43,322 bases of DNA from Candidatus Omnitrophota bacterium (GCA_043820815.1 JBDRDJ010000029.1:1-43322), one strand, 5' to 3'. Shown: positions 6,514 through 41,415, counted from the stretch's first letter. Numbers and translations: made by a program. The notes: a model not told the origin generated them from the sequence alone.

Positions 6514-6541
6514 TGCAAATGGCAAATAGCCATTCGCCATT
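6514..6541. repeat. Heptamer array (TGCAAAT GGCAAAT AGCCATT CGCCATT)
   Basis: Four 7-nt units filling the tRNA-Cys/tRNA-Leu spacer. Confidence 0.55.
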
Positions 6542-6543
6542 AA

Positions 6544-6629
6544 GCCGGGGTGTTGGAATTGGCAGACAACACAGACTTAAAATCTGTTGTTCCGTAAGGA
6601 GCGTGCGGGTTCGAGTCCCGCCCCCGGCA
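6544..6629 (+). tRNA. tRNA-Leu (TAA)
   Basis: GCCGGGG/CCCCGGC acceptor, ACAGA-CTTAAAA-TCTGT anticodon arm, long variable arm, GGTTCGA. Confidence 0.95.
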
Positions 6630-6784
6630 TCAATTAGCCAGTTATTTTCCGAGGAAAAACCTGAAAAAATAACCGGCTAATTGATCTCGAGCGAAGCGAG
6701 AGATCTTATAAAGGCATCTCGCTGATGTCAGCTCGATGCCGATGAAAAATAAGGAATAACCCTTAATAATTGCTTTTTCATCGG
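6629..6784. repeat. Four consecutive hairpins between tRNA-Leu and tRNA-Val
   Basis: Inverted repeats at 6629-6685, 6683-6705 (GATCTC-GAGCGAAGCGA-GAGATC), 6713-6740 and 6739-6784. Confidence 0.7.
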
Positions 6785-6856
6785 GCGGTTAGCTCAGTTG
6801 GTTAGAGCGCAACGTTGACATCGTTGAGGCCACAGGTTCGACCCCTGTACCGCCCA
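6783..6856 (+). tRNA. tRNA-Val (GAC)
   Basis: GGGCGGT/ACCGCCC acceptor, CAACG-TTGACAT-CGTTG anticodon arm, GGTTCGA. Confidence 0.95.
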
Positions 6857-6977
6857 TTTTTACGAAGCTAAGCCTCGAATTTTTCCTGAAAATCATCTTT
6901 TTTATTGCATTTTCCTCTGAAAAATGTTATTCTTTACTCAGGGGTTCCAGAAAAAACACCAATGTATATTAATTGTT

Positions 6978-7313
6978 ATGGCAAAATATCAAGAAAATAT
7001 AAAATGTGTAGCGGCTGCTTTTATAATCACTATAATTTTTTTTAATATGGCAGATAAAACTTTTGCTAATTCAAATGAATCCGAAAAAATTCCAAAGGAT
7101 GTAGTAGAGTTTCAAGAGCGTCGAGATTTATGCGACCATTTTCGGGGTGAACCACCATATGATGAAAAAAGGCGTAAATTTCTTATAATAAAAATGAAAG
7201 AAACTTGCACCGGAGCCGATACTGAGTTAAAAGCCTTAAAGAAAAAGTATAAAAATGATGCCGAAGTTATGAAAATTCTGAGAACATATGAAGAAAACAT
7301 TGAAACCGAATAA
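6978..7313 (+). CDS. Hypothetical exported helical protein with two Cys (CDHFRGE..YD...CTG)
   Basis: Signal-peptide-like N-terminus from ATG 6978; charged helical body. Confidence 0.65.
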   Translation: MAKYQENIKCVAAAFIITIIFFNMADKTFANSNESEKIPKDVVEFQERRDLCDHFRGEPPYDEKRRKFLIIKMKETCTGADTELKALKKKYKNDAEVMKILRTYEENIETE

Positions 7314-7434
7314 CATAATGTTAGCCATAATCCCTATAAAGCCCCGTTGTCAAGAGAAAATAGCACTCCTTAAACAACCTCTTTTTCTAAATTTACCTTG
7401 ACATTTCCCGGTAAATAAGTTATATATTAATGAA

Positions 7435-7466
7435 CCTTTAAGCTGGTCCAGTGAGGCCAATAAGGA
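7435..7466 (+). promoter_or_regulatory. PyrR binding loop (attenuator leader)
   Basis: CCTTTAA...GGTCCAGTGAGGCC...AAGGA matches the PyrR consensus (CUUUAA, RUCCNGNGAGGY). TTGACA at 7398-7403 upstream. Confidence 0.88.
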
Positions 7467-7489
7467 ATAAAAATGAAGAAAAGAATAAT

Positions 7490-7529: not shown

Positions 7530-7542
7530 CATGGGCTGTTGT

Positions 7543-8112
7543 ATGGTAAATAATTCAAAAATACTTTCCTGTGATGATATACGCAGGGTGCTATACCGCC
7601 TCACTCACCAGTTGATTGAGAAAAATACAAATCCCCAAGAGCTTGCCCTTATAGGTATTCAGACAAGAGGCGCTTACCTGGCAAGGCGAATCCAGGGGCT
7701 GATAAAGGAGATAGAGGGCACCGAGATACCTTTAGGCGTGATAGACATTACGCTTTACAGAGATGATTTGACTGCTATCGGGCCAAAACCTCTGGTAAAA
7801 CAGACTGATATCGGTTTTGATTTAAGCGGTAAAGTTATTGTTCTGGTTGACGATGTTCTATATACCGGCCGAACAGTAAGGGCGGCCTTAGATGAAATTA
7901 TGGATTTCGGGCGGCCAAAAAGAGTCGAGCTTCTGGTGCTGATTGACCGGGGATTTAGAGAGCTGCCAATAAGGGCTGACTTCGTAGGTAAAAACATACC
8001 GACTTCTCAGGATGATTCGGTTGAAGTCCGCTTGAAAGAAGTTGATAGTGAGGATTGCGTTATAATCAGGCCTCAGGCTCAAGGCTCAAGGCCGCAGGCG
8101 GGATATCCATAG
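7543..8112 (+). CDS. pyrR: Pyrimidine operon regulator / uracil PRTase PyrR (alternative start 7531)
   Basis: [47 protein letters not shown]. Confidence 0.96.
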
Positions 8113-8197
8113 TCCACGGCCCATAGTTTTGGAATGCGTATCTAGGGGCAGAGGCCAGACTTATTCGGTTTTCGGTATTCGCTTCTCGGTATTCGTG
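8068..8197. repeat. Three different heptamer arrays at the pyrR-pyrB junction
   Basis: AGGCTCA-type x5 (8068-8102), TCCATAG-type x3 (8106-8126), ATTCGGT-type x5 (8163-8197). Confidence 0.7.
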
Positions 8198-8199
8198 TT

Positions 8200-9126: not shown

Positions 9127-9157
9127 GATTTAAAGATATATTGAGGGAAAAACCGAA

Positions 9158-11729: not shown

Positions 11730-11762
11730 TTGCAGGGAACGGCCGCGGCCGTTCCCTGCAAT
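11729..11762. repeat. Perfect 34-bp REP-like palindrome
   Basis: ATTGCAGGGAACGGCCG|CGGCCGTTCCCTGCAAT. Confidence 0.85.
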
Positions 11763-14813: not shown

Positions 14814-14819
14814 ACGCCT

Positions 14820-14900
14820 CGTCCTTCGGCTCATTTCATTCGCTCAGGACGACCCTGAGTCAAGCCTTTAAACAGAGTGTAGAGCGAAGCCGAAGGGTCG
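14820..14900. repeat. Double hairpin of the TTCG/CTCA family
   Basis: CGTCC-TTCG...CTCA-GGACG followed by the inverse CGACCC-TGAG...GCGAAGC-CGAA-GGGTCG. Confidence 0.75.
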
Positions 14901-14939
14901 TTACCCTAACCGAAAGACGTTACCAAAAGTTACTAAATC

Positions 14940-15638
14940 ATGGATATTTCGGCGGTTGTTCCGGTATATAATGAAGAAGAATCCGTTCCGGTACTGAATA
15001 AACGCCTTTTTGATGCCTTAAGCCGCAGTAAACTAAGTTTTGAAATAATTTATGTCAATGACGCAAGTTCTGACTGTTCAAGGGAAATACTTAACAAGAT
15101 AGCAAGCAGCCAAAAAAACACACGCTGTATATCATTTAAAGAAAACAGGGGCCAGTCAGCGGCCCTTAGCTTAGGGTTTAAAGAGGCGCAAGGCATATGG
15201 ATTATTACCCTTGATGCTGATTGTCAGAATCCTCCTGAAGAAATAGATAAGCTTTTAAAACTTAGGAATTCCTATGATTTTATAACAGGAGTCCGCATGC
15301 GCAGGCAAGATACCATAATGAAAAAACTATCTTCTAAGATAGCCCTGTTTTTTAGGAAATTAGTCCTTGGTGATTCAACGAGAGATACGGGATGTTCTTT
15401 GCGCCTGTTTAAAAAAGAGATTGTTGAAAAAATCCCTCTCTTTATAAATTTTCATAGATTCTTTACCTTTCTGGTCAGAGAGGCAGGATTTTCGATTGTA
15501 GAGGTGGAAGTGGGCCATAACAAGCGGGATTTCGGAAAGTCAAAATACAACAATTTTCGCAGAGGTAAAGAAGGCTTGTTTGATTTATGGGGTGTATACT
15601 GGTTAAGAAAACGTGTCATTAAGTATAAAATCCAATGA
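14940..15638 (+). CDS. GT2 polyprenyl-phosphate glycosyltransferase (DPM1/ArnC-like)
   Basis: VVPVYNEEE, NDASSD, NRGQSAA, TLDADCQNPP, DTGCSLR, HRF. Confidence 0.9.
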   Translation: MDISAVVPVYNEEESVPVLNKRLFDALSRSKLSFEIIYVNDASSDCSREILNKIASSQKNTRCISFKENRGQSAALSLGFKEAQGIWIITLDADCQNPPEEIDKLLKLRNSYDFITGVRMRRQDTIMKKLSSKIALFFRKLVLGDSTRDTGCSLRLFKKEIVEKIPLFINFHRFFTFLVREAGFSIVEVEVGHNKRDFGKSKYNNFRRGKEGLFDLWGVYWLRKRVIKYKIQ

Positions 15639-15916
15639 ATTCTGAAATAGTATGGATTACTATCGGAATGTTAGGGCAGTTTCTTTTTTTCTTGCGCTTT
15701 TTCTTTCAGTGGATTGCTTCCGAAAGAAAAAAAGAAAGTGTCATACCGGTTTCATTCTGGTATTTTAGCATTTTAGGAGGGGCTATCCTTCTTACTTATT
15801 CCATATGGCGGCGCGACCCGGTATTTATTTTAGGCCAAAGCTTAGGCATTATCATATACGCACGCAACCTTTATTTTATATACCGCCGCAAGCGTAAGAA
15901 TCTTGCTCAGTCATAA
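15635..15916 (+). CDS. Lipid A biosynthesis N-terminal (LAB_N) domain membrane protein
   Basis: GQFLFFLRFFFQWIASE...SVIPVSFWYFS..G...RDPVFILGQ. Confidence 0.88.
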   Translation: MNSEIVWITIGMLGQFLFFLRFFFQWIASERKKESVIPVSFWYFSILGGAILLTYSIWRRDPVFILGQSLGIIIYARNLYFIYRRKRKNLAQS

Positions 15917-15918
15917 AT

Positions 15919-17544
15919 TTGATTAGAGCTGGGCCCTGTGTGACAAAATTCCCAAGACTTGTCGGTTTTATGTCTTTAACCATACATATAAGAGGCTTGT
16001 TCGAAAAAATCCGCAAAACCAACCCCTATATATTTCTCCTTTTATTATGCGCGTTTCTGTATCTACCGTCTTCTCTTGCCCGAGACCCGCTTGCCCCGGA
16101 TGAGATTCGAAATATTTACATAGCCCAGAATATGGAAGAATTTAATGATTTTCTTTTCCCTAAATATTACGACGAAACTTACTACGAGAAGCCCCCTTTG
16201 TATTTTTGGATTCTTAAAGTTCTTATTTTGCCGGGAAGAAATTATACGTTGTTTTTGACAACGCTTTTTAATGTTTTTGTCGCATGGGGGATATTGTCTT
16301 TAAATTATACACTGTTAAAAAAACGTGCCTCGGCCCTCACTGCTATGGTTTCCTGTATTGTTCTTGCTACAACCGCGATATTTCTCGGTATGAGCGTTTT
16401 GATAAGGATGGATCTTCTTTTTGTTTTTTTTATTTATTTGAGCCTTTTCTTTTTTATACGGGCAATTGAAGAAGAAGATACCTACTGTTTGTTGTTTTCG
16501 GGCATTTTTAGTTTTCTGGCCGTGTTTACCAAAGGCGCTTTAGGAATAATTTTTCCCATAGTTATCGAATCGGCCATGGCGGTTGTACTTTTATTGCGGC
16601 AGAGAAGGGGTATCTTTGAGGACAGAGGAATTACCCCGCAGCAAGTTATATCGTTTTCTGCTTTAGCAAATGCTCTGGCTATAGTTCTTGTTTTCGCATG
16701 GATAACCTTTTTTGCATCAAAAGACCCTTTGTATTTCAGTAAGATGTTTTTTGAACAAACATATTCGCGCGGGCTCAACCCGTCAAACCACACACAGCCG
16801 TTCTTTTACTATATACCGGTTTTTTTTCTTCTGTTTTTGCCCTGGTCATTGGTGGGAAGCGGGTATTTTCTTATAAAAAATAAAAATAGCCGGCCTTTGT
16901 GGGAAACCTTTTTCCTCGTATGGTTTATAGGCGGCCTTGTTGTCCTTTCATTAATCCGTTCTAAATTGCCGATGTATCTTCTTTCGCTTACCATTCCTTT
17001 CAGCGGCCTAACCGCTAAGTTTATTTTAAGTGAAAAAAAGAAAACAAGAAGGGCGCTGTTTATTATAAGTGTTTTTTTCTTTTTCTTTACTTGGGCTGCA
17101 GGATTCGTTTACGCGGTTACACAGAAAATAGGAATACCCTTATTTGCATATTTTACTATACCGCTGTTTGTTGCAATGGCTTGGGCTGTTATTGTTTTTC
17201 CTAAGGAACAAGTCAGGGTTTTTTGTATTTTCTGGATAATATTTATACAGGCTTTAAACATTTTCTGCCTTTCCGTGGTGAGTAACTCCTCAAAATATAA
17301 AAGGATAGTAAATATAATAAACGAATCAACACTTCCTTTTGACAGTATTATTGTTACTGAGAAAAAGCTTATGTTTTTAAACGCTTACCCTTTGAAGAAG
17401 CCCATTGAATACGTTTCCAGCATAGAAAAAGTATGCCGGTCCAATTCTTTTATGTTAATAACCAGACATGATCAATTTCCCTGTGAATTGGAGAAAATTA
17501 TTAAAATAAAAAAATTTTCACTGATGTATAAAAACCATGACTAA
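15919..17544 (+). CDS. ArnT/PMT-like (GT-C) glycosyltransferase (start may be ATG 15970)
   Basis: PDE.R, YYEKPPLYFW, TKG, H.QPFFYY, LPWS, SK.PMY; many TM helices. Confidence 0.87.
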   Translation: MIRAGPCVTKFPRLVGFMSLTIHIRGLFEKIRKTNPYIFLLLLCAFLYLPSSLARDPLAPDEIRNIYIAQNMEEFNDFLFPKYYDETYYEKPPLYFWILKVLILPGRNYTLFLTTLFNVFVAWGILSLNYTLLKKRASALTAMVSCIVLATTAIFLGMSVLIRMDLLFVFFIYLSLFFFIRAIEEEDTYCLLFSGIFSFLAVFTKGALGIIFPIVIESAMAVVLLLRQRRGIFEDRGITPQQVISFSALANALAIVLVFAWITFFASKDPLYFSKMFFEQTYSRGLNPSNHTQPFFYYIPVFFLLFLPWSLVGSGYFLIKNKNSRPLWETFFLVWFIGGLVVLSLIRSKLPMYLLSLTIPFSGLTAKFILSEKKKTRRALFIISVFFFFFTWAAGFVYAVTQKIGIPLFAYFTIPLFVAMAWAVIVFPKEQVRVFCIFWIIFIQALNIFCLSVVSNSSKYKRIVNIINESTLPFDSIIVTEKKLMFLNAYPLKKPIEYVSSIEKVCRSNSFMLITRHDQFPCELEKIIKIKKFSLMYKNHD

Positions 17545-18909: not shown

Positions 18910-19740
18910 ATGCGTGAATTTAATGTAAAAATAAGCACCACCAAAAAGATAAAAACAGATATATACTTACTGGCCTTTAAGCATGCCTATGTTGCTAATC
19001 GTATAAAGCCGGGGCAATTCTTACACATAAAGATTGATGAGAATCAAACCATACTGCGCCGCCCCTTAAGTGTTCACAAAGTCAAAGCCGGAACTGTTTA
19101 TGTTCTTTTTGAGGTCCGCGGAAGAGGCACAAAGCTCCTTTCTACTTATAAAAGAGGCAAGATACTTAATATTATAGGGCCTCTGGGCAATGGATTTAAT
19201 TTAAAGCCTTGGGTCAAAATACGAAATACGAAACACGAACCGCAAACCACAGCATCTTCAGCAAATATTCTGATAGGCGGAGGAATTGGTGCTGCCCCAT
19301 TATTCTTCCTGGCTCAGAAATTAAAAAATGAAAACAATACGGTATTAATTGGCGCTCCGGCAAAAGATAAGATTGTCTGCGTGGAAGATTTTAAGAAGCT
19401 TGGGTGCAATGTTCAAATAGCAACTGACAACGGCACTAAAGGTTACAAAGGCCCTGTCACCGGCCTGCTAAAAAAGTTGTTGCCAAACACGAACCACCCT
19501 TCGGCTTCGCTCAAGGGCCGCTCACCACGAACCGCGATATATGCCTGCGGGCCAAAAAGTATGTTTGCTGAGATATATAAAATCATAAAACCTTATAAAA
19601 ATATATACTGTGAGGTATCCTTTGACCAATTTATGGGCTGTGGTTTGGGTTTTTGTTATACCTGCGTTATAAAAACAAAAGACGGTTATAAAAAATTATG
19701 TAAAGAGGGGCCGGTTTTCAGGATAGACCAAATCTGGTGA
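18910..19740 (+). CDS. pyrK: Dihydroorotate dehydrogenase electron transfer subunit
   Basis: PGQF, LRRPLS, GPLGNGF, GGGIG, ACGP, MGCGLGFCYTC...CKEGPVF ([2Fe-2S]). Contains two repeat-derived insertions. Confidence 0.94.
   Translation: MREFNVKISTTKKIKTDIYLLAFKHAYVANRIKPGQFLHIKIDENQTILRRPLSVHKVKAGTVYVLFEVRGRGTKLLSTYKRGKILNIIGPLGNGFNLKPWVKIRNTKHEPQTTASSANILIGGGIGAAPLFFLAQKLKNENNTVLIGAPAKDKIVCVEDFKKLGCNVQIATDNGTKGYKGPVTGLLKKLLPNTNHPSASLKGRSPRTAIYACGPKSMFAEIYKIIKPYKNIYCEVSFDQFMGCGLGFCYTCVIKTKDGYKKLCKEGPVFRIDQIW
19218..19252 (+). repeat. Heptamer array inside the pyrK reading frame
   Basis: AATACGA AATACGA AACACGA ACCGCAA ACCACAG. Confidence 0.75.
19486..19537 (+). repeat. Heptamer array with a nested TTCG/CTCA hairpin inside pyrK
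   Basis: AACACGA ACCA[CCC-TTCG-GCTTCG-CTCA-AGGG]CCGCTC ACCACGA ACCGCGA. Confidence 0.7.
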
Positions 19741-20936: not shown

Positions 20937-20940
20937 ATGA

Positions 20941-20987
20941 GGCAGCATCTTTTGCCGAAGTGTTGCGAGAGCAAGAGTGCTTAGCCT
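20941..20987. repeat. Hairpin element, copy 1 (copy 2 at 41307-41372)
   Basis: GCAGCATCTTTTGCCGA...GCGAGAGCAAGAGTGC.TAGC. Confidence 0.7.
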
Positions 20988-21010
20988 AGCGTGTAATTTT
21001 TCAGAATGCA

Positions 21011-21160
21011 GGTAACAGTTAGGGTTATGGTGACGTAAATAAATTAAAAATCAAATATCAAAAATTTAAATGGCAACGTAAAATTTTAAGAGTTAAATCT
21101 AAACATTTTGAATTTTAATTTGTCGTTTTGATATTTACATTTTTATTTTTGATTTTGCAA
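21011..21160. repeat. ~150-bp AT-rich inverted-repeat element, copy 1
   Basis: 6-nt-period prefix, then an AAAAATCAAATATCAAAAAT... arm and a ...TTTTGATATTTACATTTTTATTTTTGATTTTGCAA arm. Colinear with 34745-34901. Confidence 0.8.
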
Positions 21161-21187
21161 AATGAACACTTAATAAAGGAGAGGTTT

Positions 21188-27919: not shown

Positions 27920-27967
27920 TTACTAATAGTAGAAGCGGATATCCGCCTATAATCTTGGTTTTATAAT

Positions 27968-29805: not shown

Positions 29806-29900
29806 GATTTCTCATCCCGCCTGTTGCGGGATTCGAAATCAATTCGCATCAGTGACTTATGTTCTCTTTCGATCCATAAGTCACGTGCTCATTGAGGAGG
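29806..29900 (+). repeat. Two-hairpin TTCG/CTCA cassette fused to the SD of subunit K
   Basis: GATTTC-TC-ATCCCGC..GCGGGAT-TC-GAAATC, then CAA-TTCG...GTGACTTATG..CATAAGTCAC...CTCA-TTG-AGGAGG. Confidence 0.8.
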
Positions 29901-30353: not shown

Positions 30354-30509
30354 AGCAGCTTAAGATTACTGATAATTTTAAGTGCTTGATTTTTTGCGTA
30401 AATTTGATATTATTGGTCTTTTCTTATTGACCTTGTAATTAATAATTATTCTTGATAAACTTGTATTCAGATAATGACGCAATGGCTTTTTAATGGTATT
30501 ATAGCCATA

Positions 30510-30551
30510 TTGCTATTTGCCATAAGCTATTTGCAATTTGCCATTTGCTAT
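30510..30551. repeat. Heptamer array (TTGCCAT/TTGCTAT) x6
   Basis: TTGCTAT TTGCCAT AAGCTAT TTGCAAT TTGCCAT TTGCTAT, ending 3 nt before tRNA-Val. Confidence 0.8.
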
Positions 30552-30554
30552 TAT

Positions 30555-30626
30555 GGGCGGTTGGCGCAGCGGAAGCGCATCTCGTTTACACCGAGGGGGT
30601 CGTGGGTTCAAATCCTACACCGCCCA
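30555..30626 (+). tRNA. tRNA-Val (TAC)
   Basis: GGGCGGT/ACCGCCC acceptor, loop TTTACAC, GGTTCAA. Confidence 0.95.
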
Positions 30627-30675
30627 TTTGTATATTTAATAGCCTTAGTGTAGATTAAAGAGTTTGGAGACAGGC

Positions 30676-31164
30676 ATGAGCGTAAACACTCCGGCCCTTG
30701 CTTTAAGCATTTGTTCTGCCTTAGCGATTATTATTTTTGTGAGTGCTTATCTTCGCACGGTCTTAAGGTACAGTGCGCTTTTAGAATCAGTCGCTTCTCT
30801 TATAGAAGGTAAGGTTACAGCAGGAATATTTTATTCGTCAATCCACTTAACAGGCAGTTACAAGGGGAGGAAAATAAAGTGCAGCCTTGAGCAGCTTAAA
30901 GAAGGGAGTAATGCGTTTCTTCTTAAGGCTAAACCTCATAAGTTTCCCCTCATGAAAAAAAGCTTAGGCAACCAGCCTTATGTTTTCGGTGATGCTATTC
31001 TTTATGAAGGCTGGGTAATGACGAATTATTTCCTTTCTCCCAATACGTTCACGAGAAACTCTTTTTTAAGTGTCCTGGAAGAGCTCAGCACAATTTGCGA
31101 GAAAGTAGAAAGAAGAAGCATTACCGCCAGCGTTGAGTATAAAGGAGATACTCCTCATATATAA
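30676..31164 (+). CDS. Hypothetical membrane-anchored protein
   Basis: N-terminal TM helix; GGAG RBS before ATG 30676; family not recognised. Confidence 0.65.
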   Translation: MSVNTPALALSICSALAIIIFVSAYLRTVLRYSALLESVASLIEGKVTAGIFYSSIHLTGSYKGRKIKCSLEQLKEGSNAFLLKAKPHKFPLMKKSLGNQPYVFGDAILYEGWVMTNYFLSPNTFTRNSFLSVLEELSTICEKVERRSITASVEYKGDTPHI

Positions 31165-31206
31165 TATCAAAAATCAAAAATTAAAATGATATTGATTTTT
31201 GATATT
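31163..31206. repeat. Short copy of the AT-rich inverted-repeat element
   Basis: 15-bp perfect IR AATATCAAAAATCAA / TTGATTTTTGATATT. Confidence 0.7.
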
Positions 31207-31218
31207 TAAAAGGCAAAT

Positions 31219-32934: not shown

Positions 32935-32957
32935 GTTATTTGAAAATATTTATTAGA

Positions 32958-33051
32958 GATACTTCGCCCGTTTATAGCGGGCTCAGTATCAATTCGGCCA
33001 AATGACTTATGTTCGTTTTCGCTCCATAAGTCATGGCCTCATTGAAGGAGG
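32958..33051 (+). repeat. Two-hairpin TTCG/CTCA cassette fused to the SD of infC
   Basis: GATAC-TTCG-CCCGT..GCGGG-CTCA-GTATC, then CAA-TTCG-GCCA..TGACTTATG..CATAAGTCA-TGGC-CTCA-TTG-AAGGAGG. Confidence 0.8.
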
Positions 33052-33061
33052 TAGATAAAAT

Positions 33062-33565
33062 TTGAAGTTTGTAAGGGTAAACGAAAGAATATTCGCAAAG
33101 ACTTTGCGCGTTGTCGGCCCGGAAGGGGAACAGCTGGGTATTTTTCCCAAGGCCATGGCTCTTAGTAAAGCGAATGAACTTAATCTTGATTTAGTTGAAG
33201 TAGCACCCGCGGCGAAACCACCTGTGTGCAGGATTATGGATTTTTCTAAATACAGGTATGAGCAGGAAAAAAGAGAAAGGGAAGTAAAGAAACACCAGAA
33301 ACAGTCTCAGCTTAAGGAAATACGCCTTAGGCCGCGAATAGGTAAACACGATTACGAAGTTAAATTAAAGCATATAAAGGAATTTCTGGAAAAGAAGCAT
33401 AAAGTGAGAATAAGGATGATGTATAAAGGCAGAGAAATTGCACATAAAGATATAGGGGATAGATTGATAAGCCAGCTTATACAGGATATCGATAAAATAG
33501 GAAGGGTTGACCGCGACCCTCATATGTTCGGTAAAACCCTGGTTATGGTGCTGGCACCTAAGTGA
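33062..33565 (+). CDS. infC: Translation initiation factor IF-3 (TTG start)
   Basis: LDLVEVAP...PPVCRIMDF.KY.YE, KEIRLRP.I..HD, GRE. Confidence 0.96.
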   Translation: MKFVRVNERIFAKTLRVVGPEGEQLGIFPKAMALSKANELNLDLVEVAPAAKPPVCRIMDFSKYRYEQEKREREVKKHQKQSQLKEIRLRPRIGKHDYEVKLKHIKEFLEKKHKVRIRMMYKGREIAHKDIGDRLISQLIQDIDKIGRVDRDPHMFGKTLVMVLAPK

Positions 33566-33636: not shown

Positions 33637-33771
33637 GATACTTCGTCCGCTTATTGCGGACTCATTGAAATGACCTAAATAAGATTCTTCGCCTGCCATT
33701 GGCAGACTCAGGATCAATTCGGCCTTATCCCGCTCCTTTTGGAAAAGGGGCGGGATGGCCTCATTGAGGAG
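33637..33771 (+). repeat. Partial plus complete TTCG/CTCA cassette fused to the SD of rpmI
   Basis: GATAC-TTCG-TCCGC..GCGGA-CTCA-TTG (33637-33667); GATTC-TTCG-CCTGCC..GGCAGA-CTCA-GGATC; CAA-TTCG-GCC..ATCCCGCTCCTTT..AAAGGGGCGGGAT-GGC-CTCA-TTG-AGGAG. Confidence 0.8.
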
Positions 33772-34349: not shown

Positions 34350-34745
34350 ATGAAATATATAATAGTAGTTGGATGCGGCAAGACAGGCAGAGAGCTGGCT
34401 TTTGAGCTTTCAAAAACAGAGAACGTCGTTGTTGTAGACAGGAACCTTCGCGCCCTTGATGCGCTGGGGGATGATTTTAACGGGAAAAAGATTTGGGCTG
34501 ATGCTTTGGACATGAATGTTCTTGAAGATGCCGGGATAAAAGAAGCAGGCGTGATTTATCTTCTTACAGGCAACGATAATCTCAATTTAGTTATCGGGAA
34601 AGTTGTAAAAAGAAAATACGGTGTTCAGAAAGCCATCTTGCAGGTAAACGACATAACTAAAAAGAAGATTTTTAAAGAGGAAGGTTTAACTATTGTAAGC
34701 CGCACTTACTTGATAGTTGAAGTTCTTAAGAAGTGCATTGCATAA
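34350..34745 (+). CDS. TrkA-family RCK_N-only protein
   Basis: IIVVGCGKTG Rossmann motif, LEDAGI, TGNDNLN; no RCK_C domain. Confidence 0.85.
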   Translation: MKYIIVVGCGKTGRELAFELSKTENVVVVDRNLRALDALGDDFNGKKIWADALDMNVLEDAGIKEAGVIYLLTGNDNLNLVIGKVVKRKYGVQKAILQVNDITKKKIFKEEGLTIVSRTYLIVEVLKKCIA

Positions 34746-34901
34746 ATTACAATTACGGTAACGGTTATGTAAATAAATCAAAAATTAAATATCAAAAATA
34801 AAAATGACAATGAAAAAATTAAAAATTTAAGATTTAAATCTAATCATTTTGAATTTTTATTTGTCATTTTAATATTTACATTTTGATTTTTAATTTTGCA
34901 A
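34745..34901. repeat. ~150-bp AT-rich inverted-repeat element, copy 2
   Basis: AATTAC AATTAC GGTAAC GGTTAT GTAAAT prefix plus arms colinear with 21011-21160. Confidence 0.8.
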
Positions 34902-34926
34902 TCTGGATATTAATTTGGGGTAAATT

Positions 34927-35592
34927 ATGTATATAGTAATAGCAGGAGTAGGCAGGCTTGGGCTAATTTTAGCCAGAAAGCTTAGAGAAGACAAACATCA
35001 AGTCTGTGTTATTGATAAAAGCGAGAGCCTTTGCAACAGGCTTGCCGCTGAATTAGAAGACATTTTGATCATTTGCGGCGATGCCACTTATCCAGATATT
35101 CTGCACCAGGCAAAGATGGAAAAAGCCGATGTATGCGTAAGCGCAACATCTACCGACGAAGATAATATTATTATTTGTAATTTGTCAAAAGAGCTTTTTG
35201 GAGTAAAAAGGGCGGTTTCCAGAGTAAATGACCCCAAACACCTCCCCCTTTACAAATATATGGAGGTTGATAATCCGGTAGATTCCACTTCTATTATTGC
35301 CCGCATTGTAGAAGAGGAGGCTTCTTTTACCGATTTTATGAATTTGCTGAGCATAAAAAAGGGAAGGCTCTCTATAGTCCGCGTTGATATACCTGAAGAT
35401 TCCCCCGTTGCCAAAAAGATCCTTAAAGATATTCGCCTTCCTTCCAATTCCGTTCTGGTTTCGATAATTAGAGGGCCGGATATTATTATTCCTTCAGGGT
35501 CAACGCAGATTTTACCCGGAGACGAAGTAATAGCCGCGACTCTTATTGATGTCGAAAAAGATCTTATCAAGGCTCTGATCGGAAAATTATGA
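34927..35592 (+). CDS. trkA: Trk potassium uptake NAD-binding protein TrkA
   Basis: IVIAGVGRLG, GDAT, DEDN, RCK_C (IIRG...IPSG). Confidence 0.92.
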   Translation: MYIVIAGVGRLGLILARKLREDKHQVCVIDKSESLCNRLAAELEDILIICGDATYPDILHQAKMEKADVCVSATSTDEDNIIICNLSKELFGVKRAVSRVNDPKHLPLYKYMEVDNPVDSTSIIARIVEEEASFTDFMNLLSIKKGRLSIVRVDIPEDSPVAKKILKDIRLPSNSVLVSIIRGPDIIIPSGSTQILPGDEVIAATLIDVEKDLIKALIGKL

Positions 35593-35681: not shown

Positions 35682-37166
35682 ATGATTATTTCCCCCGACA
35701 GAAAAGATTTCTTTACCATTCTTAATATTCTGGGAAGGCTTATTTTAGGTTTGAGCTTCTTTTTGGTTATCCCTATAATCGTAGCTCTAATAAGAAAAGA
35801 AGCTTCTCCCTTCTTCGATTTTCTTATAACTTTTTTTGTTACATCTTTTTTGGGCATGTTTTTGGTTCTTCTTTTCCCTTTAAAAAAAGAGCCCGGATGG
35901 ATTCATGCCTTTTTTACGGTAAGCGCGGGATGGCTTGTCTCATCTTTACTCGGGGCAATACCTTTATACCTATCGGCACATTTCGGCAGCTTTATAGATG
36001 CATGGTTTGAAGCGATGAGCGGTTTTGCTACAACCGGCCTAGTTCTCATTCAGGACCTCGACCATCTTTCTTACTCGCATAATATGTGGCGCCACCTTAC
36101 CATGTTTATCGGGGGCCAGGGAATTATTCTGGCAAGCCTTTCGATATTGACCCGCGCACGTTCTGCAGCTCTTGGTTTTTATATCGGCGAAGCCCGCCAG
36201 GAAAAAATACTCCCTAACGTATTGGCCACATCACGGTTTATCTGGAGGGTCAGTTTTACTTTCCTAATTATCGGAGTGTCAGCCTATACAGCTATTTTAT
36301 TTTATAAGGGGCTTAATATCGAAAGGGCATTTTTCCACGCGATCTGGCTATTTTTTGCATCTTTCGATACAGGAGGATTTGCGCCGCAGGCCCAGAACAT
36401 TGCCTATTATCACTCGCGCTTGCTTGAGGCGGTAACCGTTGTGTTTATGATTATGGGCGCGATTAATTTTAATCTGCATTTCTGGCTTTGGACTAAAAGA
36501 AAACGGGAAATTTTTAATAATTTTGAAATTCGCACATTCTTTCTTACGTTCTTTTCTTTGCTTATCCTTGTGTACCTTCCTCTTAAAGGGCTGGGTAATC
36601 TTTCAATGTTTCACAAAGGATTTTATCAGCTGATCTCTGCCCACTCAGGCTGCGGTTTTTCTAATATGGGAACAATTGAGTTAGCGGGTTTTCCGCCCTT
36701 AGCGCTCTTAGCTGTTATTTTTGCGATGATGATAGGCGGCGGAGTATGCTCTACAACCGGCGGAATAAAATTAATGCGCATAGGGATAATTTTAAAAACA
36801 TTTATCATGGAAACAAAAAGATGGATGATGCCGTTTAAAGCGGTTTATAAAGACAGGCTGCACCATCTGCAGGATATTATACTTTCCGAGAAAAGAATAA
36901 AAGAAGCTTATGTCTTTTTCTCGCTTTTTCTGTTTACCTATGTTTCAGGAGCAATTATCGGTATGATTTACGGCTACCCGGCATTATTTTCGCTTTTTGA
37001 GTCTGTATCGGCAACAGCAAATGTAGGCTTGTCAGTCGGCATAACCAACCCGGCAATGCCGGCGGGATTAAAGTTAGTATACATTTTTCAAATGTGGGCA
37101 GGCAGGTTAGAGTTCCTGTCAATCTTTGTTGCTTTAGGATTTATAGTCTCTGTGTTTAGAAAGTAA
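35682..37166 (+). CDS. trkH: Trk potassium uptake membrane protein TrkH
   Basis: FEAMSGFATTG, GGQGI, DTGGF, STTGGIK, SATANVGLS, GRLE. Confidence 0.93.
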   Translation: MIISPDRKDFFTILNILGRLILGLSFFLVIPIIVALIRKEASPFFDFLITFFVTSFLGMFLVLLFPLKKEPGWIHAFFTVSAGWLVSSLLGAIPLYLSAHFGSFIDAWFEAMSGFATTGLVLIQDLDHLSYSHNMWRHLTMFIGGQGIILASLSILTRARSAALGFYIGEARQEKILPNVLATSRFIWRVSFTFLIIGVSAYTAILFYKGLNIERAFFHAIWLFFASFDTGGFAPQAQNIAYYHSRLLEAVTVVFMIMGAINFNLHFWLWTKRKREIFNNFEIRTFFLTFFSLLILVYLPLKGLGNLSMFHKGFYQLISAHSGCGFSNMGTIELAGFPPLALLAVIFAMMIGGGVCSTTGGIKLMRIGIILKTFIMETKRWMMPFKAVYKDRLHHLQDIILSEKRIKEAYVFFSLFLFTYVSGAIIGMIYGYPALFSLFESVSATANVGLSVGITNPAMPAGLKLVYIFQMWAGRLEFLSIFVALGFIVSVFRK

Positions 37167-37178
37167 CCAGAAAAAAAC

Positions 37179-37203
37179 GTAGGGGCAGGGCTTGCCCCTG
37201 CCC
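37179..37203 (+). repeat. GTAG-type REP hairpin
   Basis: GTAG-GGGCAGGG-CTTGC-CCCTGCCC. Confidence 0.8.
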
Positions 37204-37217
37204 GTTTAATATACAAA

Positions 37218-37724
37218 ATGTTAAAAATAATGAAAACCAGAAATATTTATGCCTTATGCGTTGTGTCTTGTGTCTTGTGTCTGGGCACAGCTTACGCTGA
37301 AGTAACCAGCATCCAGGAAGTGCTTAGCTCGCCGGCGTTATTCGATAAGAAGCAGGTCGAAATCGAAGGCGAGATAATAGGGGAGCTTTTGAATGATAAG
37401 GCCGGAGCCTGGGTAAATATTTCTGACCGGGGAAATAATATTGGTATTTTTCTGCCCGGGCAGGATATGGTTAAAAATATTTCTTATTGGGGAAAATATG
37501 GGATAATCGGTGACCGGGTAAAAGTTACAGGAACTTTTTTCAATAATTGTTCCCAGCATCAAGAGATTGATGTTCATTCTGAGAAAATAGAAGTAATAAA
37601 AGCAGGCTTCAAGGATATTAAGCCTCCTTCCCCGCGCAAGATAGAAATTACTCTGGCTTTATTTATTATCTGGTTGACAATAACCATAGTTTACCTTATA
37701 AGATTATACATATCTAAGATATAG
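37218..37724 (+). CDS. Exported OB-fold-like protein with C-terminal TM anchor
   Basis: Signal peptide (..TAYA|E), V.IEGE.IG, GDRVKVTGTF, C-terminal TM. Confidence 0.7.
   Translation: MLKIMKTRNIYALCVVSCVLCLGTAYAEVTSIQEVLSSPALFDKKQVEIEGEIIGELLNDKAGAWVNISDRGNNIGIFLPGQDMVKNISYWGKYGIIGDRVKVTGTFFNNCSQHQEIDVHSEKIEVIKAGFKDIKPPSPRKIEITLALFIIWLTITIVYLIRLYISKI
37247..37281 (+). repeat. Heptamer array encoding the signal-peptide core
   Basis: TTATGCC TTATGCG TTGTGTC TTGTGTC TTGTGTC. Confidence 0.75.
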
Positions 37725-37740: not shown

Positions 37741-38844
37741 ATGGAACAGGAACTAAAACAATTAGAAGAGCAATTTAACCGGGATTCTCAAGGTGCCAAA
37801 ACTCAAGAAGACCTTGAGGTTCTAAGGGTAAAATATTTAGGAAGGAAGTCTTCTTTTAACGAGCTGTTCTCACGGATTCCTTCGTTGCCTAAAGAGCAGA
37901 GAGGTTTGTGGGGCAAAAACCTCAATATTCTTAAACAAAAGATTACCCGGGCGCTTTCAGACAAAGGAAATCAATTTAATTCTCAAGAAAAGAAGATTGA
38001 CCTTAGTTTTCCTCCCGTTGAAATTGATAGAGGATCAATCCATATTTTAAGGTCAGTCCTTGCCCGCATATGCAGAATTTTTGAAAAATTAGGATTTGCC
38101 GTAGTTGAAGGAGGCGAAATTGAGGATGAATGGCATAATTTTGAAGCGTTAAATATTCCTCTCGAGCATCCTTCGCGCGATGTTTTTGATACTTTTTATC
38201 TGCAAACCCCAAAAGGCACACACATACATAAGTCAAAAAAGGAGAAACCCCAGGGAAGTTATCTTCTACGAAGCCATACCTCACCTTCTCAGATAAGAGT
38301 TATGAAGGAGAATCCCCCCCCGCTCGCCGTTATCTCTCCGGGAAGGGTATACAGGCCTGATCAGGTTGACGCAACCCATTCGTTTATGTTCCATCAAATA
38401 GAGGGTTTTGCCGTAAGCAGGGAGTTAAATTTTGCTCATTTAAAAGGAGTTTTGCTTTATTTTGCCCGTGAATTTTTTAATCCCGGGGTAAATTTGCGTT
38501 TACGTCCCCATTTTTTCCCTTTTACAGAGCCTTCAGCAGAAGTTGATATTTCTTGTTTTATATGTTCCGACACCAGAAGTCAGAAGCCAGAGGTCAGACG
38601 TCAGAAGTCAGAAAAAAATAACGCAATACGAAAGTGCAGTGTATGCAAAGGCAAAGGATGGCTTGAAATTCTTGGCTGCGGGATGATCCATCCAAATGTC
38701 CTTGAAAGCTGCGCAATTGACTCGAAAAAATATAAAGGTTTCGCCTTTGGCATGGGCGTTGAACGCATTGCCATGCTGAAATACGGTATAGACGATATAC
38801 GTTTATTTTACGAGAATGATGTCAGATTCTTATCACAATTTTGA
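37741..38844 (+). CDS. pheS: Phenylalanyl-tRNA synthetase alpha subunit
   Basis: NFEALNIP..HPSR, LLRSHTSP.Q, PGRVYR, FHQIEG, FPFTEPS, GFAFGMGVER. Confidence 0.97.
   Translation: MEQELKQLEEQFNRDSQGAKTQEDLEVLRVKYLGRKSSFNELFSRIPSLPKEQRGLWGKNLNILKQKITRALSDKGNQFNSQEKKIDLSFPPVEIDRGSIHILRSVLARICRIFEKLGFAVVEGGEIEDEWHNFEALNIPLEHPSRDVFDTFYLQTPKGTHIHKSKKEKPQGSYLLRSHTSPSQIRVMKENPPPLAVISPGRVYRPDQVDATHSFMFHQIEGFAVSRELNFAHLKGVLLYFAREFFNPGVNLRLRPHFFPFTEPSAEVDISCFICSDTRSQKPEVRRQKSEKNNAIRKCSVCKGKGWLEILGCGMIHPNVLESCAIDSKKYKGFAFGMGVERIAMLKYGIDDIRLFYENDVRFLSQF
38574..38615 (+). repeat. In-frame (CAGAAGT)n heptamer array inside pheS
   Basis: CAGAAGT CAGAAGC CAGAGGT CAGACGT CAGAAGT CAGAAAA. Confidence 0.85.
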
Positions 38845-38893
38845 TTGTAGATGCTGATTCTCGCAGATATCCGTTTCTAGAGAAAAAAGCGAC

Positions 38894-40879
38894 ATGAAAT
38901 TTAGCTTAGATTTTATCAAAGAGTTTATCGATGTAGAGATACCGCCGGAAGTGGTAGCTGCCCGGCTTACCATGAGCGGTATGGAGGTTGAAAAATTAGA
39001 GAGGCATCAAGCTGACTGGATATTTGATATAGAGGTTACCTCTAACAGATTCGACTGGCTTTCTATGCATGGGATAGCCAGGGAATTATCCGCATGTTTA
39101 GGCAAAGCCTTTAAAGTTAAATATCCCGCGATTACAAAGAAACCTCTTTTAAAAAAGCCGTCAGTTGTGATAGAAAACCTTAAAGATTGTCCATATTATG
39201 TGGGCAGGTCTTTAAGCGGAGTAAAAGTTTCGCAATCTCCCCGCTGGCTTAAAGAACGCATTGTTAATTGCGGTATAAACTCAATAAATAATGTAGTCGA
39301 TATTACTAACTACTGTATGCTTAAATGGGGTAACCCTCTGCATGCTTTTGATCAAGATAAAATAGAAGGGAACGTTTATGTAAGAAGGGCGTGTAAGGGT
39401 GAGAAGTTTATAGGAATCGATGAAAAGGAACGTGTTTTAACGAAAGACAATTTAGTTATAGCTGATGACAAAAAGATAATAGCCTTAGCAGGTGTGATTG
39501 GGGAAAAATTTACCGAAGTCACCGAGTCAACGACTAATGTTTTCTTAGAGGCAGCAATATTTTCTCCTTTAACCGTAAGGCGTTCCCGGAGGCTTGCAGG
39601 AGTAGACACAGAGTCATCTTACCGGTTTGAGAGAATGGTGCACCCTGATTGCCTGGAGTATGCATCATCTGAGGCTTCTAAAATTATTGAGCAGCTGGCA
39701 AAAGCAAAACAAAAAGGATATTGCCAGTCCGGGAAAAAGCCCCTTTTAAAAAGAAAGGCAATTGAAATATCGCCGGCAAAAGTTTCAAGTTATCTGGGAG
39801 AAGAATTCTCCTTTAGCATACTTACCAAAATTCTTAAATCTCTTGATTTTACCGTTATAAATCAGGGTAAAGGAGAATTAAAAATTAGCCCCAGCCGGTT
39901 CCGTTTTGACATAGACCGGGAGGTTGACGTTTATGAAGAGATTTCCCGCATACACGGATATGAGCATATAAGGCCTAAGATTCCTTTCTTGCTTTCAGGC
40001 GTAAGGCAGGATGAACTTTACGAGTTTAAGAACGCCCTCAGGCTTTTTCTCTCTTCTTTGGCCTTACGTGAAATCGTAAGCTTTAGCATAGAGGCTCAGG
40101 AGGAATTAGGTAAATTAAGCAAAATAAAGCCTATTATGATTGCTAACCCCCTGCGAAACCAGGAAAACGCAATGAGGGCAACTTTACTTATTGGAATGCT
40201 AAAGAGCATAAAAAATAACTTAAACCGCAACCAGACAAGGCTTAAATTTTTCGAGATAGCAAATGTTTATTCCATGAAAGATAATACAATATACGAGGAG
40301 CCTTTCCTTTCGATGGGTATATGCACCCAGGATAAGGGCCTATTCCTTCTTAAGGCTTATTTGGAAGAATTGCTTCGATATTTAAATATCGAACAGGTAG
40401 AAATCAACGAGAATGCCCGCGATAACTTTACCAATTGCCTTGAATTTATCAGTGAAAAACAGGAATTAGGTTTCTTAGGAAAGCTTAATTGCCAGACAGC
40501 TAAAGAATTTGATATTAAAGAAGACGTTTTTTATGTTGAGCTAAACATTAATATTTTAAACAAAATTAAAAAAAACACATTATTTGAGCATTTCAGCCCA
40601 TACCCGGCAGTATCCCGGGACATAAGCCTTACAATAAGAGAGGATACCAAATTTGCCGAAATAGAATCTCTTATGCGAAAGCAAGCCCCGGATTGTCTGG
40701 CTAACGTAAAGGTGATTGATGAGTATGAGGGAAAGGATATCCCCGAAAACGTACGTGCGTTTACACTGCGGGTTCTGTATCAATCCAAAGAGCGTACGCT
40801 CACCTCTGCCGAAATCGATCAAATTCATACAAACATAAGAAATTCCTTAAACAGCCTCGACGGCATCACCCTCCGCTAA
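38894..40879 (+). CDS. pheT: Phenylalanyl-tRNA synthetase beta subunit (short form lacking B2)
   Basis: EVTSNR.D, INNVVDITNY, PLHAFD, SSYRFER, RFDI..EVD..EEI.RI.GY, FDX-ACB tail. Confidence 0.95.
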   Translation: MKFSLDFIKEFIDVEIPPEVVAARLTMSGMEVEKLERHQADWIFDIEVTSNRFDWLSMHGIARELSACLGKAFKVKYPAITKKPLLKKPSVVIENLKDCPYYVGRSLSGVKVSQSPRWLKERIVNCGINSINNVVDITNYCMLKWGNPLHAFDQDKIEGNVYVRRACKGEKFIGIDEKERVLTKDNLVIADDKKIIALAGVIGEKFTEVTESTTNVFLEAAIFSPLTVRRSRRLAGVDTESSYRFERMVHPDCLEYASSEASKIIEQLAKAKQKGYCQSGKKPLLKRKAIEISPAKVSSYLGEEFSFSILTKILKSLDFTVINQGKGELKISPSRFRFDIDREVDVYEEISRIHGYEHIRPKIPFLLSGVRQDELYEFKNALRLFLSSLALREIVSFSIEAQEELGKLSKIKPIMIANPLRNQENAMRATLLIGMLKSIKNNLNRNQTRLKFFEIANVYSMKDNTIYEEPFLSMGICTQDKGLFLLKAYLEELLRYLNIEQVEINENARDNFTNCLEFISEKQELGFLGKLNCQTAKEFDIKEDVFYVELNINILNKIKKNTLFEHFSPYPAVSRDISLTIREDTKFAEIESLMRKQAPDCLANVKVIDEYEGKDIPENVRAFTLRVLYQSKERTLTSAEIDQIHTNIRNSLNSLDGITLR

Positions 40880-41094
40880 ATATATCAGTTAAAAATAAAT
40901 CTCCTGATCGCACTATCATGATAGAAATCAGTGCAATCTGTGGTTTAAAAAAGTCCGGCATATATTATTAATCCCGATATTCCTGTCAAAAGAAATTTGA
41001 TATTTTCTAGAATAGCCGGCATTTAATTACGTAACTCATTCATAGATAAAAGGAAGCAAATTCGGCATTTTATTCAAAATAAGGCTTGCTTAGA

Positions 41095-41123
41095 TTGACA
41101 TTTTGGATTTGGTATGTTATACT
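41095..41123 (+). promoter_or_regulatory. Sigma70 promoter of 6S RNA
   Basis: TTGACA (41095-41100), 17 nt, TATACT (41118-41123), with TG extension. Confidence 0.75.
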
Positions 41124-41138
41124 CAAAATGAAGAAAAC

Positions 41139-41297
41139 AAAACCCTGCATGTCGCGTAAGCAGGTACAAGTGCTACAGCCAATATTTACTAAAGGGAGCC
41201 AAATTTTTCTTCCGTTGCGGCGGACAGAATGCGGTGCCCACCTGTATGAGAACAGGACTGTATGCAGCATACCTGCGACGGACAAGCGCAGGGTTTT
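41139..41297 (+). ncRNA. ssrS: 6S RNA
   Basis: ~160-nt rod: AAAACCCTGC/GCAGGGTTTT closing stem, GCAGGTA/TACCTGC and TACAG/CTGTA stems, A-rich bubble before GGGAGC, GTGCCCACC. Downstream of pheT with its own promoter. Confidence 0.82.
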
Positions 41298-41306
41298 TTT
41301 AATGAA

Positions 41307-41415
41307 GCAGCACTTTTGCCGAGCCCTTCGGCAATACTCAGGGTAAACTCCGCGAGAGCAAAAGTGCGTAGCTGAATTAATCCCGTTACGAGCGAAGCGA
41401 GTTTACGGGATTAAT
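41307..41415. repeat. Composite hairpin cluster after 6S RNA
   Basis: GCACTTTTGC/GCAAAAGTGC stem with nested CCC-TTCG..CTCA-GGG, then ATTAATCCCGT..GCGAAGC..ACGGGATTAAT. Confidence 0.75.

Follow-up and report, generated by a model that had tools for sequence, protein, structure and literature searches.

The window analysed here is the whole of contig C29 (43.3 kb; 43,322 nucleotides) of the genome of a Candidatus Omnitrophota bacterium (GCA_043820815.1, JBDRDJ010000029.1:1-43322), referred to below as the source genome, or G000. We believe that it presents an ordinary housekeeping backbone that has probably been colonised in recent times by short selfish DNA of three classes that differ in mechanism: tandem arrays of 7-nt units (heptamer arrays), hairpins with a TC/TC internal loop (TTCG/CTCA hairpins), and repetitive extragenic palindromes with a GTAG head (GTAG REPs). 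The main value of the finding lies in the proposed tie between the heptamer repeats and a cassette that encodes a four-helix-bundle protein of PF05635/TIGR02436, which offers a clue to the origin of such repeats. We consider this link quite probable for the source genome; its validity as a general law appears doubtful to us.

The assembly comprises 1.57 Mb in 32 contigs at about 40% GC and 77% completeness. Nearly all genes of the window are housekeeping genes on the plus strand: yidC, parAB, ndk, gmk, a tRNA cluster, pyrR-pyrB-pyrC, dut, fpg, pabB, pyrK, pyrD and pyrF in the first part, then the V-type ATPase operon, thrS-infC-rpmI-rplT, trkA/trkH, pheS-pheT, the 6S RNA gene and rarA. Counts in the span 6514-41415 were compared with 40 third-order Markov sequences and genome-wide counts with three null genomes; fold z-scores relate the structure of individual window hairpins to the null. 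An initial annotation of this DNA described a layered population of tiny repeats, and the repeat classes do recur outside the window and exceed the null models in the genome-wide counts. At the Rfam gathering thresholds, the only matches in the window are five tRNAs and 6S RNA, and no repeat class fits any Rfam family.

Operon junctions and TTCG/CTCA hairpins

Synteny with the window extends from pyrR to pheT in three genomes of the same family (G135, G260 and G278), and two more (G145 and G269) were compared in the pheS region alone; the number of relatives per junction is one to three, and three to five in the pheS region. At twelve junctions the spacer in the source genome exceeds that of the available relatives by at least 26 nt; in the relatives the genes mostly overlap or are separated by less than 20 nt; the exceptions among the relatives' spacers are infC-rpmI (34-60 nt), atpI-atpK (66 nt in G278) and pabB-pyrK (38-391 nt). 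The spacers measure (source genome against G135, G260 and G278, in nt; negative values denote overlaps) 87 against 1, 0 and 5 for pyrR-pyrB, 48 against -4, -4 and -4 for atpD-atpI, 142 against 9, 9 and 66 for atpI-atpK, 127 against -4, -23 and 4 for thrS-infC, 214 against 58, 60 and 34 for infC-rpmI, 181 against -16, -16 and -13 for trkA1-trkA2, 51 against -7, -13 and -1 for trkH-orf168, and 49 against 14, 16 and -11 for pheS-pheT. The extra spacer DNA consists of the repeats. Considering that the same spacers are short or overlapping in the relatives, we conclude that the repeats of the source genome are insertions. Empty orthologous sites, named in the initial annotation as a check, were thus found: the repeats are missing from these junctions in the one to three relatives compared (three to five in the pheS region). 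The overlap of trkH with orf168 is preserved in five of five relatives, and no GTAG hairpin occurs in the relatives' syntenic stretches.

The Shine-Dalgarno (SD) sequence is already present in the relatives at thrS/infC, atpI/atpK and infC/rpmI, and the hairpin of the source genome stops directly 5' of it. The suggestion that the host co-opts the repeats as a context for the ribosome-binding site (RBS) could not be upheld, since the SD is ancestral at these three junctions. Filled and empty sites together present a natural experiment on the foreign DNA absorbed by tightly coupled operons: gene pairs that overlap in the relatives are driven apart by as much as 181 nt, and the RBS is kept as the inserts end just upstream of it. 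A point against the reading as selfish DNA is that no insertion or excision polymorphism was seen in the four public DNA runs, whose shares are small (0.07-0.12; no RNA run is listed), and that no clean joint across any insert was found there; the joints listed from these runs, with sides shorter than 50 nt, probably come from the repeats of other organisms.

Two further length differences were observed between the genomes compared. At 14814-17544 of the window, GT2, LAB_N and ArnT-like genes form an insertion in comparison with G135 and G260, in which fpg and pabB adjoin each other. The rpmI-rplT spacer, short in the source genome, measures 147 nt in G260 (L055 14255-14430) and holds a different palindrome with the outer helix ATACAAT/ATTGTAT; G260, which is poor in repeats, thus has an insert of its own.

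In the TTCG/CTCA hairpins, an outer helix leads to a symmetric TC/TC internal loop, which T-A and G-C pairs close, and beyond this loop stands an inner hairpin that varies; the motif also occurs flipped, as CTCA...TTCG. The loose TTCG-stem-CTCA pattern is uninformative (34 hits against 22, 25 and 27 in the nulls), and the outer helix was required instead. The strict motif gives 18 hits, whereas other loop dinucleotides yield 0-5 and the null genomes 1-2. This class of the initial annotation is accordingly retained in its strict form, with real copies at 29806, 32957 and 33638, and abandoned in the loose one, which shows no enrichment.

A regular expression for module B of the hairpins finds 35 hits against 9-13 in the nulls, with about 26 family members, and in 21 of the 26 the terminal CTCATTGA is immediately followed by (A)GGAGG and a start codon. 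The exact 14-mer at this end occurs 18 times in the source genome and in none of 10 genomes of the same family or order; elsewhere it is patchy (40 of 301 genomes, with most hits in G252, G215 and G270). Modules stand in tandem (A-B, A-A-B), and the same stems bear different apical inserts. The triple hairpin at 6630..6745 combines a long TCAATT..AATTGA part, a reverse-oriented GATCTC-TCG..CTC-GAGATC part and a GGCATC-TCG-..-CTC-GATGCC part, the middle module having seven copies in the genome. The nesting noted initially was also confirmed: a 29-nt TTCG...CTCA unit lies in the loop of two of the four copies of a host hairpin and stands alone at four other loci.

We presume that the hairpins are DNA palindromes which would stack in tandem, insert into one another's loops, and come to rest mostly with CTCATTGA 5' of an existing SD; their effects on mRNA are likely side effects rather than the reason for the repeats. 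It is tempting to propose instead that they are RNA devices evolved by the host, that is, RNase III or other processing sites, 5' stabilisers, RBS insulators or terminators selected to tune operon expression. Indeed, 21 of 26 hairpins are oriented like the gene and leave the SD unpaired immediately 3' of the stem, several apical loops are CTTCGG, the helices differ in sequence and yet keep their pairing, and the stems of related cassettes, the intervening sequences (IVS) of 23S rRNA, are described in passages of PMC4990558 as cut by RNase III. We nevertheless regard this explanation as unlikely. The same junctions lack the elements in the three same-family genomes compared, where the genes overlap or abut with the same SD; near-identical copies precede unrelated genes, and three copies are antisense to the local genes. 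An excess of G.U pairs in the sense strand, as a sign of selection at the RNA level, was not observed (12 against 22), and in 23 of 28 copies it is the antisense strand that forms the more stable fold. The patchy distribution across the phylum and the lack of an Rfam match speak against RNA devices as well. On the other hand, all 21 SD-abutting copies lie on the G-rich or neutral strand, so that gene orientation and replication strand are confounded, which weakens the case for DNA palindromes.

Our guess for the enzyme that might move the hairpins is a Y1 transposase. One Y1 paralogue was considered as the mobiliser and rejected: its product, a 189-aa protein similar to REP-associated tyrosine transposases (RAYTs), occurs in one of the three hairpin-rich genomes, which also counts against the guess. 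PF01797 and PF05635 are both present in all three hairpin-rich genomes and both absent from two negative ones, and do not discriminate. We found no paper on TTCG/CTCA hairpins in the (mostly open-access) literature. Cyanobacterial nested small dispersed repeats and Rickettsia palindromic elements are comparable in that tiny palindromes enter one another and enter genes in frame; to our knowledge, neither the TC/TC internal loop nor the placement 5' of the RBS belongs to the Rickettsia or cyanobacterial families.

On C7 of the source genome (about 4700-4890), hairpin modules come after a tRNA-Phe gene, and behind them the last 17-19 nt of the tRNA are repeated, which looks like an insertion into the 3' end of the tRNA gene that restored it. 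Other copies of this hairpin subfamily that do not abut an SD also adjoin tRNA genes.

Heptamer arrays and the four-helix-bundle cassette

Period-7 arrays were called by Tandem Repeats Finder (TRF), and genome-wide and between genomes the rows with a score of at least 40 were counted; our own detector of lag-7 self-matches missed degenerate arrays and was dropped. The initial annotation counted at least six array families in the window, and TRF gives seven sequence-distinct unit families. The span 6514-41415 contains 10 loci of the period-7 type, whereas the 40 Markov sequences have a mean of 0.4 and a maximum of 2; the syntenic 44-50 kb of G135, G260 and G278 contain 1, 2 and 0. Genome-wide, 71 period-7 rows were obtained against 2, 1 and 0 in the three nulls. 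Periods 14 and 21 are also enriched, and periods 6 and 8 are not (one row each). After merging, the source genome has 132 arrays, which belong to more than ten unit families; 58 are intergenic, 28 lie at the edges of genes and 46 fall within crude calls of open reading frames (ORFs), part of the latter being false ORFs created by the repeats themselves. No structure was detected in the stretch 8055-8199 (fold z -0.4).

Four ORFs of the source genome encode PF05635/TIGR02436 four-helix-bundle (Avd-like) proteins over the cut-off (TIGR02436 119.9 and 80.4 bits). All four are enclosed by inverted arrays, each pair with its own unit. A contrast of gene and array was made on samples of 43-120 kb per genome, taken from 20 further members of the class, with the source genome added. 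Arrays are present in nine of ten PF05635-positive genomes, counting the source genome, and in none of eleven PF05635-negative genomes (43-100 kb each; two belong to the same family). As proposed initially, the arrays could be checked against candidate genes in this way, and their presence follows PF05635. Six of the eleven array-free negative genomes carry one to five Y1_Tnp genes, and G288, which is PF05635-positive and has no Y1_Tnp, contains eight period-7 rows in 50 kb.

A positional test was made on 80 loci that encode relatives of one four-helix-bundle protein of the source genome, sampled from Planctomycetota, Elusimicrobia, Nitrospirota, Bacteroidota, Acidobacteriota, Patescibacteria, several proteobacterial groups and others. 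Array density within 250 nt of the gene is 3.1 and 3.6 per kb on the two sides; from 250 nt to 2.5 kb away it is 0.1-0.3 per kb in most bins, and 0.63 in the most distal upstream bin (2.0-2.5 kb). The enrichment around the gene family is 10- to 30-fold. An array lies within 300 nt at 54 loci, on both sides at 34 (period 7, 14 or 21) and on one side at 20. The two-sided period-7 loci number 33, and in 29 of them the arrays are inverted (direct in three, neither in one). Proteins with the same unit are 66.5% identical compared with 50.1% for the rest, a difference reached in none of 1000 permutations of the labels, and the unit AGTGA[AT]T is common to 13 loci with at least six phylum-level labels.

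On this basis we suggest that heptamer arrays are the arms, or orphaned arms, of cassettes whose full form would be a PF05635 ORF between inverted arrays of one unit. The protein may recognise its own flanking unit, and single arrays could be remnants or seeds whose length is then altered by slippage. A broader proposal, in which stand-alone TIGR02436/PF05635 proteins are the specificity component of pan-bacterial and so far unrecognised mobile fold-back elements with heptamer arms, is offered tentatively. If it is true, each protein clade is matched to its own 7-nt unit, and the heptamer repeats reported one by one since 1990, namely the short tandemly repeated repetitive (STRR) sequences, TAACTGA, GGGAATC and the heptamers of the 23S IVS, are arms, orphan arms or ORF-less derivatives of these elements. 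The genome presence/absence contrast, the positional enrichment and the match between protein similarity and unit turn unexplained heptamer repeats into a testable hypothesis on protein-DNA or protein-RNA interaction.

The opposite possibility is slippage alone: the arrays would be simple-sequence repeats that arise locally by polymerase slippage favouring 7-nt units, with neither mobility nor a dedicated factor. The arrays are in fact degenerate and vary in unit number, and a contig of run X3 from a close relative (about 96-97% identical) has seven gapped letters over 30443-30821, which fits a difference of one TTTGCCA unit; the slippage idea is also in print, as cited in a passage of PMC4692102. 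Against it stand the contrast of nine of ten positive with none of eleven negative genomes, the inverted pairs around PF05635 genes in 29 of 33 loci across phyla, and the units CAGAAGT and AGAAACC that are common to the source genome (40% GC) and G252 (60% GC). We consider slippage alone rather improbable, somewhat more so than the RNA devices discussed above.

Several points weigh against the cassette reading and are gathered here. The counts include genomes that do not conform: G035 has three PF05635 copies and no array in 120 kb, and G023 has no array in its first 60 kb; the single period-7 row of G103 is doubtful. G252 and G270 were chosen by a repeat feature, and their contigs by PF05635 matches. 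Counts across kin are not independent and overstate the association, and PF05635 and Y1_Tnp are strongly correlated across 61 genomes. At least seven unit families of the source genome have no cognate PF05635 ORF in the 77%-complete assembly. We also know of no catalytic activity and no transposition mechanism for the four-helix-bundle protein.

The nearest known system is the 23S rRNA IVS with an S23p/PF05635 ORF (Coxiella, Leptospira, Xanthomonas). According to the relevant passages of PMC4990558, the likeness extends to a four-helix-bundle ORF within terminal inverted repeats that form a long stem, to tandem heptamers inside the element (in Coxiella, an S23p ORF, a terminal 28-bp stem and GACAGAT heptamers), and to a sporadic distribution suggestive of horizontal transfer. 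The fold-backs and arrays described here differ in that they lie between and inside protein-coding genes and not in rRNA helices, that their arms are entire arrays of one 7-nt unit, and that a genome holds dozens of ORF-less copies and orphan arms. Many bacteria have an excess of heptamer repeats. Published ones include TAACTGA in Beggiatoaceae, Cyanobacteria and Bacteroidetes (PMC4679880) and GGGAATC/GGGGATT in Xanthomonas and Nostoc (PMC4692102); the likeness lies in tandem 7-nt units of mostly intergenic location, several unit families per genome, a patchy spread and shorter spacers in close relatives. The passages searched in these two papers state that no mechanism is known, do not mention a PF05635/TIGR02436 gene, and report neither inverted pairs nor the tracking of one gene family; TAACTGA arrays are not among the listed unit families of the source genome. 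We found no paper in the (mostly open-access) literature that links PF05635/TIGR02436 generally to flanking heptamer arrays. The cyanobacterial STRR are a comparable class of heptameric tandem repeats.

PF05635 is said in a passage of PMC10053308 to resemble Avd, a protein of diversity-generating retroelements (DGRs). The protein of the source genome matches the Avd model NF033474 weakly (28.4 bits, far below the cut-off of 80), and no DGR reverse transcriptase is present: the sole reverse transcriptase, with RVT_1 and GIIM domains, is that of a group II intron. The DGR link was therefore rejected. The genes orf166, orf129 and three array-adjoining ORFs were considered as candidates too; they match a nitroreductase, an amidase or nothing, and none belongs to a relevant family. 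The product of orf166 (30664-31164, between tRNA-Val with its heptamer array and the AT hairpin) is a small membrane-anchored protein that has no family match and was not found in the three syntenic relatives.

The AT-rich fold-back element was initially listed as a class of its own. Two copies do exist in the window, but they are themselves inverted heptamer arrays and not a separate class. Their arms align with those of the PF05635 cassette at C4:59842, and we therefore regard the fold-back as an ORF-less derivative built from heptamer arms; such fold-backs probably arose from one cassette by internal deletion. Of the features expected of miniature inverted-repeat transposable elements, the fold-backs present the inverted arms that match this cassette and, at one site only, a candidate target duplication. 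That site is trkA1/trkA2, genes that overlap by 13-16 nt in the relatives: about 16 nt common to both are found on either side of the fold-back (window 34730-34950). In this one case the flanking repeat looks like a target duplication that kept both ORFs intact.

Alignment with relatives confirmed that arrays enter four coding sequences (pyrR, pyrK, orf168 and pheS) in frame. In PheS, the CAGAAGT-type units encode 14 residues between two Cys pairs, where the relatives have loops of 2-19 residues. A loop insertion of 14-15 residues in PyrK stems in part from the AAATACG-type units, the GGCTCAA units make the C-terminal tail of PyrR nine residues longer, and (TTGTGTC)x3 is the hydrophobic core of the orf168 signal peptide. 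Conserved proteins such as PheS, PyrK and PyrR thus take up repeat-encoded peptides. The initial annotation saw host co-option for signal peptides and loops here; the restriction of the arrays to a tail, two variable loops and a signal-peptide core is what tolerance predicts, and we do not follow that interpretation. Insertions would survive at the least harmful sites, which are the junctions of operons and, within proteins, the tails, variable loops and signal peptides. The ORF called from 21128 seemed to be a fifth case and was rejected as a false extension; a good SD precedes ATG 21189, which is probably the true start, so that the fold-back there is intergenic. Repeats of this kind matter for annotation, as they create false ORF starts and extensions, and they break assemblies at RAYT-like genes.

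The idea that the repeats are chimeric joins or DNA of other organisms introduced by assembly or binning has some footing in the fragmented assembly (32 contigs, 77% complete), in contigs that end in repeats and in a depth at repeats inflated in public runs by contigs of other organisms, but we consider it extremely improbable, because short contigs from three unrelated public runs recover the inserts with zero differences (32971-33121, 37068-37218 and 36980-37261, spanning hairpin B, the REP and the start of orf168) and the pheS, pyrK, pyrR and orf168 frames stay open across the arrays.

Other insertions relative to kin and another in-gene array were observed. PheS has a second insertion of ten residues (KGTHIHKSKK, window about 38215-38250) and PyrK a second one of eight (about 19500-19560). 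On C12 of the source genome (23782-23849), codons 9-31 of the gene for an AmiA-like amidase include an AAGACCA array and, next to it, a TTTGTCA/TTTGCCA array; provided that the called start is right, repeats may encode a signal peptide here too.

GTAG REPs and RAYT-like genes

GTAG is by a wide margin the commonest head of GC-rich perfect hairpins in the source genome (26, the next head having 10). The consensus is tGTAG-GGGCnnnn-loop-nnnnGCCC-GTtA, with variable stems that compensate. Hairpins with a GTAG foot are few and dispersed, 33 in the 1.57 Mb of the 77%-complete assembly, and perfect hairpins of at least 8 bp are not enriched in the span (6 against 6.05). The GTAG REPs claimed for the window were reduced to one perfect copy, one GCAG variant and one tagged palindrome; the other GTAG spots that may have been intended are unique sequence.

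The truncated RAYT-like gene at the end of the window goes on in C15 (31339-31479) via an exact overlap of 141 nt (window region 43084-43322). Past the overlap, C15 has a second N-terminal RAYT-like fragment, and the 77 nt upstream of the contig-end gene are found at five other loci too. C7, C4, C13 and C25 carry further copies of the gene, full or partial, several of them at contig ends. The intact gene for the 189-aa protein is on C7 (3872-4484; PF01797 25.5 bits, cut-off 23). A GTAG REP lies 24 nt upstream of it, and two REPs lie in frame within the ORF; placed between its HUH motif and its Tyr motif, they split the Pfam match.

We presume that the GTAG REPs are mobilised by RAYT-like HUH/Y1 transposases, in view of the association just described. 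They fit the GTAG-REP/REPtron kind as it is defined in the passages of PMC3733652, and share with the systems of PMC3733652 and PMC2817692, as far as those passages describe them, the unpaired GTAG head on a short GC-rich stem-loop, the compensating variable stems, the position beside a Y1/HUH transposase gene, and the occasional REP in a gene. The differences are the copy number (about 28-33, classically more than 100), RAYT-like genes that are multi-copy, partly truncated and at contig ends, and the two in-frame REPs inside the transposase ORF. Two points weigh against the assignment: the best NCBIfam match of the 189-aa gene, REP-associated tyrosine transposase NF047646, is below the curated cut-off of 80 (RAYT-like scores are 64.9 for this gene and 71.7 bits), and the genes are multi-copy and partly broken, unlike the classical single-copy RAYTs.

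Taken over the three classes, the statement that uncharacterised enzymes write or spread the repeats is supported in one part and needs correction in the other. Spread by dedicated, horizontally moving machinery, rather than origin from composition or local slippage alone, is supported by the empty junctions in relatives, the same units in the 60%-GC genome of G252, the tracking of PF05635 and the adjacency of REPs to RAYT-like genes. That machinery is only partly uncharacterised: the REP/RAYT pair is of a known kind, the heptamer cassette resembles the 23S rRNA IVS, and the hairpins alone are without a candidate enzyme.

Features of the window and minor observations

Repeat features of the window (strand as listed; z, fold z-score)
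Feature	Position	Strand	Remarks
TGGCAAA-type array	6510..6543	+	tRNA-Cys/tRNA-Leu gap; inverse of the array at 30510-30552
Three adjacent hairpins	6630..6745	+	z -6.8
GGCTCAA-type array	8066..8099	+	codes for the PyrR C-terminal tail
TATTCGG/TTTTCGG array	8162..8195	+	pyrR-pyrB spacer
Palindromic REP-like hairpin	11730..11761	.	GCAG variant of the GTAGGGAACGG..CCGTTCCCTAC family; five loci genome-wide; z -7.6
Nested hairpin, TTCG..CTCA motifs	14820..14905	+	left edge of the GT2-LAB_N-ArnT insertion; partial copies on C5 and C27; z -2.3
AAATACG/AACCGCA array	19213..19250 (approx.)	+	within the PyrK-coding sequence
'Empty' copy of the GCAGCA..GCGAGAGCAA.AGTGC.TAGC hairpin family	20937..20990	+	
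AT-rich fold-back	21017..21163	.	inverted AAAAATC-type heptamer arms, no ORF; weak fold, z -1.5
AAAAATC-type AT-rich arrays	21041-21156, 31162-31210, 34775-34898		
GTAG-tagged palindrome GCGGATATCCGC	27926..27950	+	atpD-atpI spacer; 3 genome copies
Module A (flipped CTCA..TTCG) and module B	29806..29895	+	ends in CTCATTGA directly 5' of the atpK SD; z -7.2
TTTGCCA array	30510..30552	+	directly 5' of tRNA-Val
Short AT hairpin, AAAAATC-type arms	31162..31210	.	12 partners; z -5.9
Modules A and B	32957..33045	+	thrS/infC; identical contig in run X2; z -6.4
Tandem modules A, A, B	33638..33767	+	infC/rpmI; z -5.8
AT-rich fold-back	34751..34903	.	splits trkA1 from trkA2; z -3.6
GTAG REP, perfect	37179..37205	+	trkH-orf168 spacer
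(TTGTGTC)x3	37261..37282	+	orf168 signal peptide
CAGAAGT-type array	38568..38613	+	six units (42 nt), PheS zinc-knuckle loop
'Filled' copy of the hairpin family at 20937	41299..41432	+	nested 29-nt TTCG..CTCA unit, then a second hairpin; z -3.9
RAYT-like Y1 transposase gene, 5'-truncated	43164..43322	+	runs off the contig; outside the span 6514-41415

An island near a contig end of the source genome (C25 86500-95488) brings together an MjaI-like restriction enzyme with its methylase, the group II intron reverse transcriptase, LexA, a nucleotidyltransferase, a Y1 fragment, REPs and heptamer arrays. Upstream of rpmH, a 71-nt stretch of the window (30-100) with a GGCATATCC..GGATATGCC hairpin is 100% identical at the ends of C2, C11 and C8, and presents a further multi-copy element that breaks the assembly.

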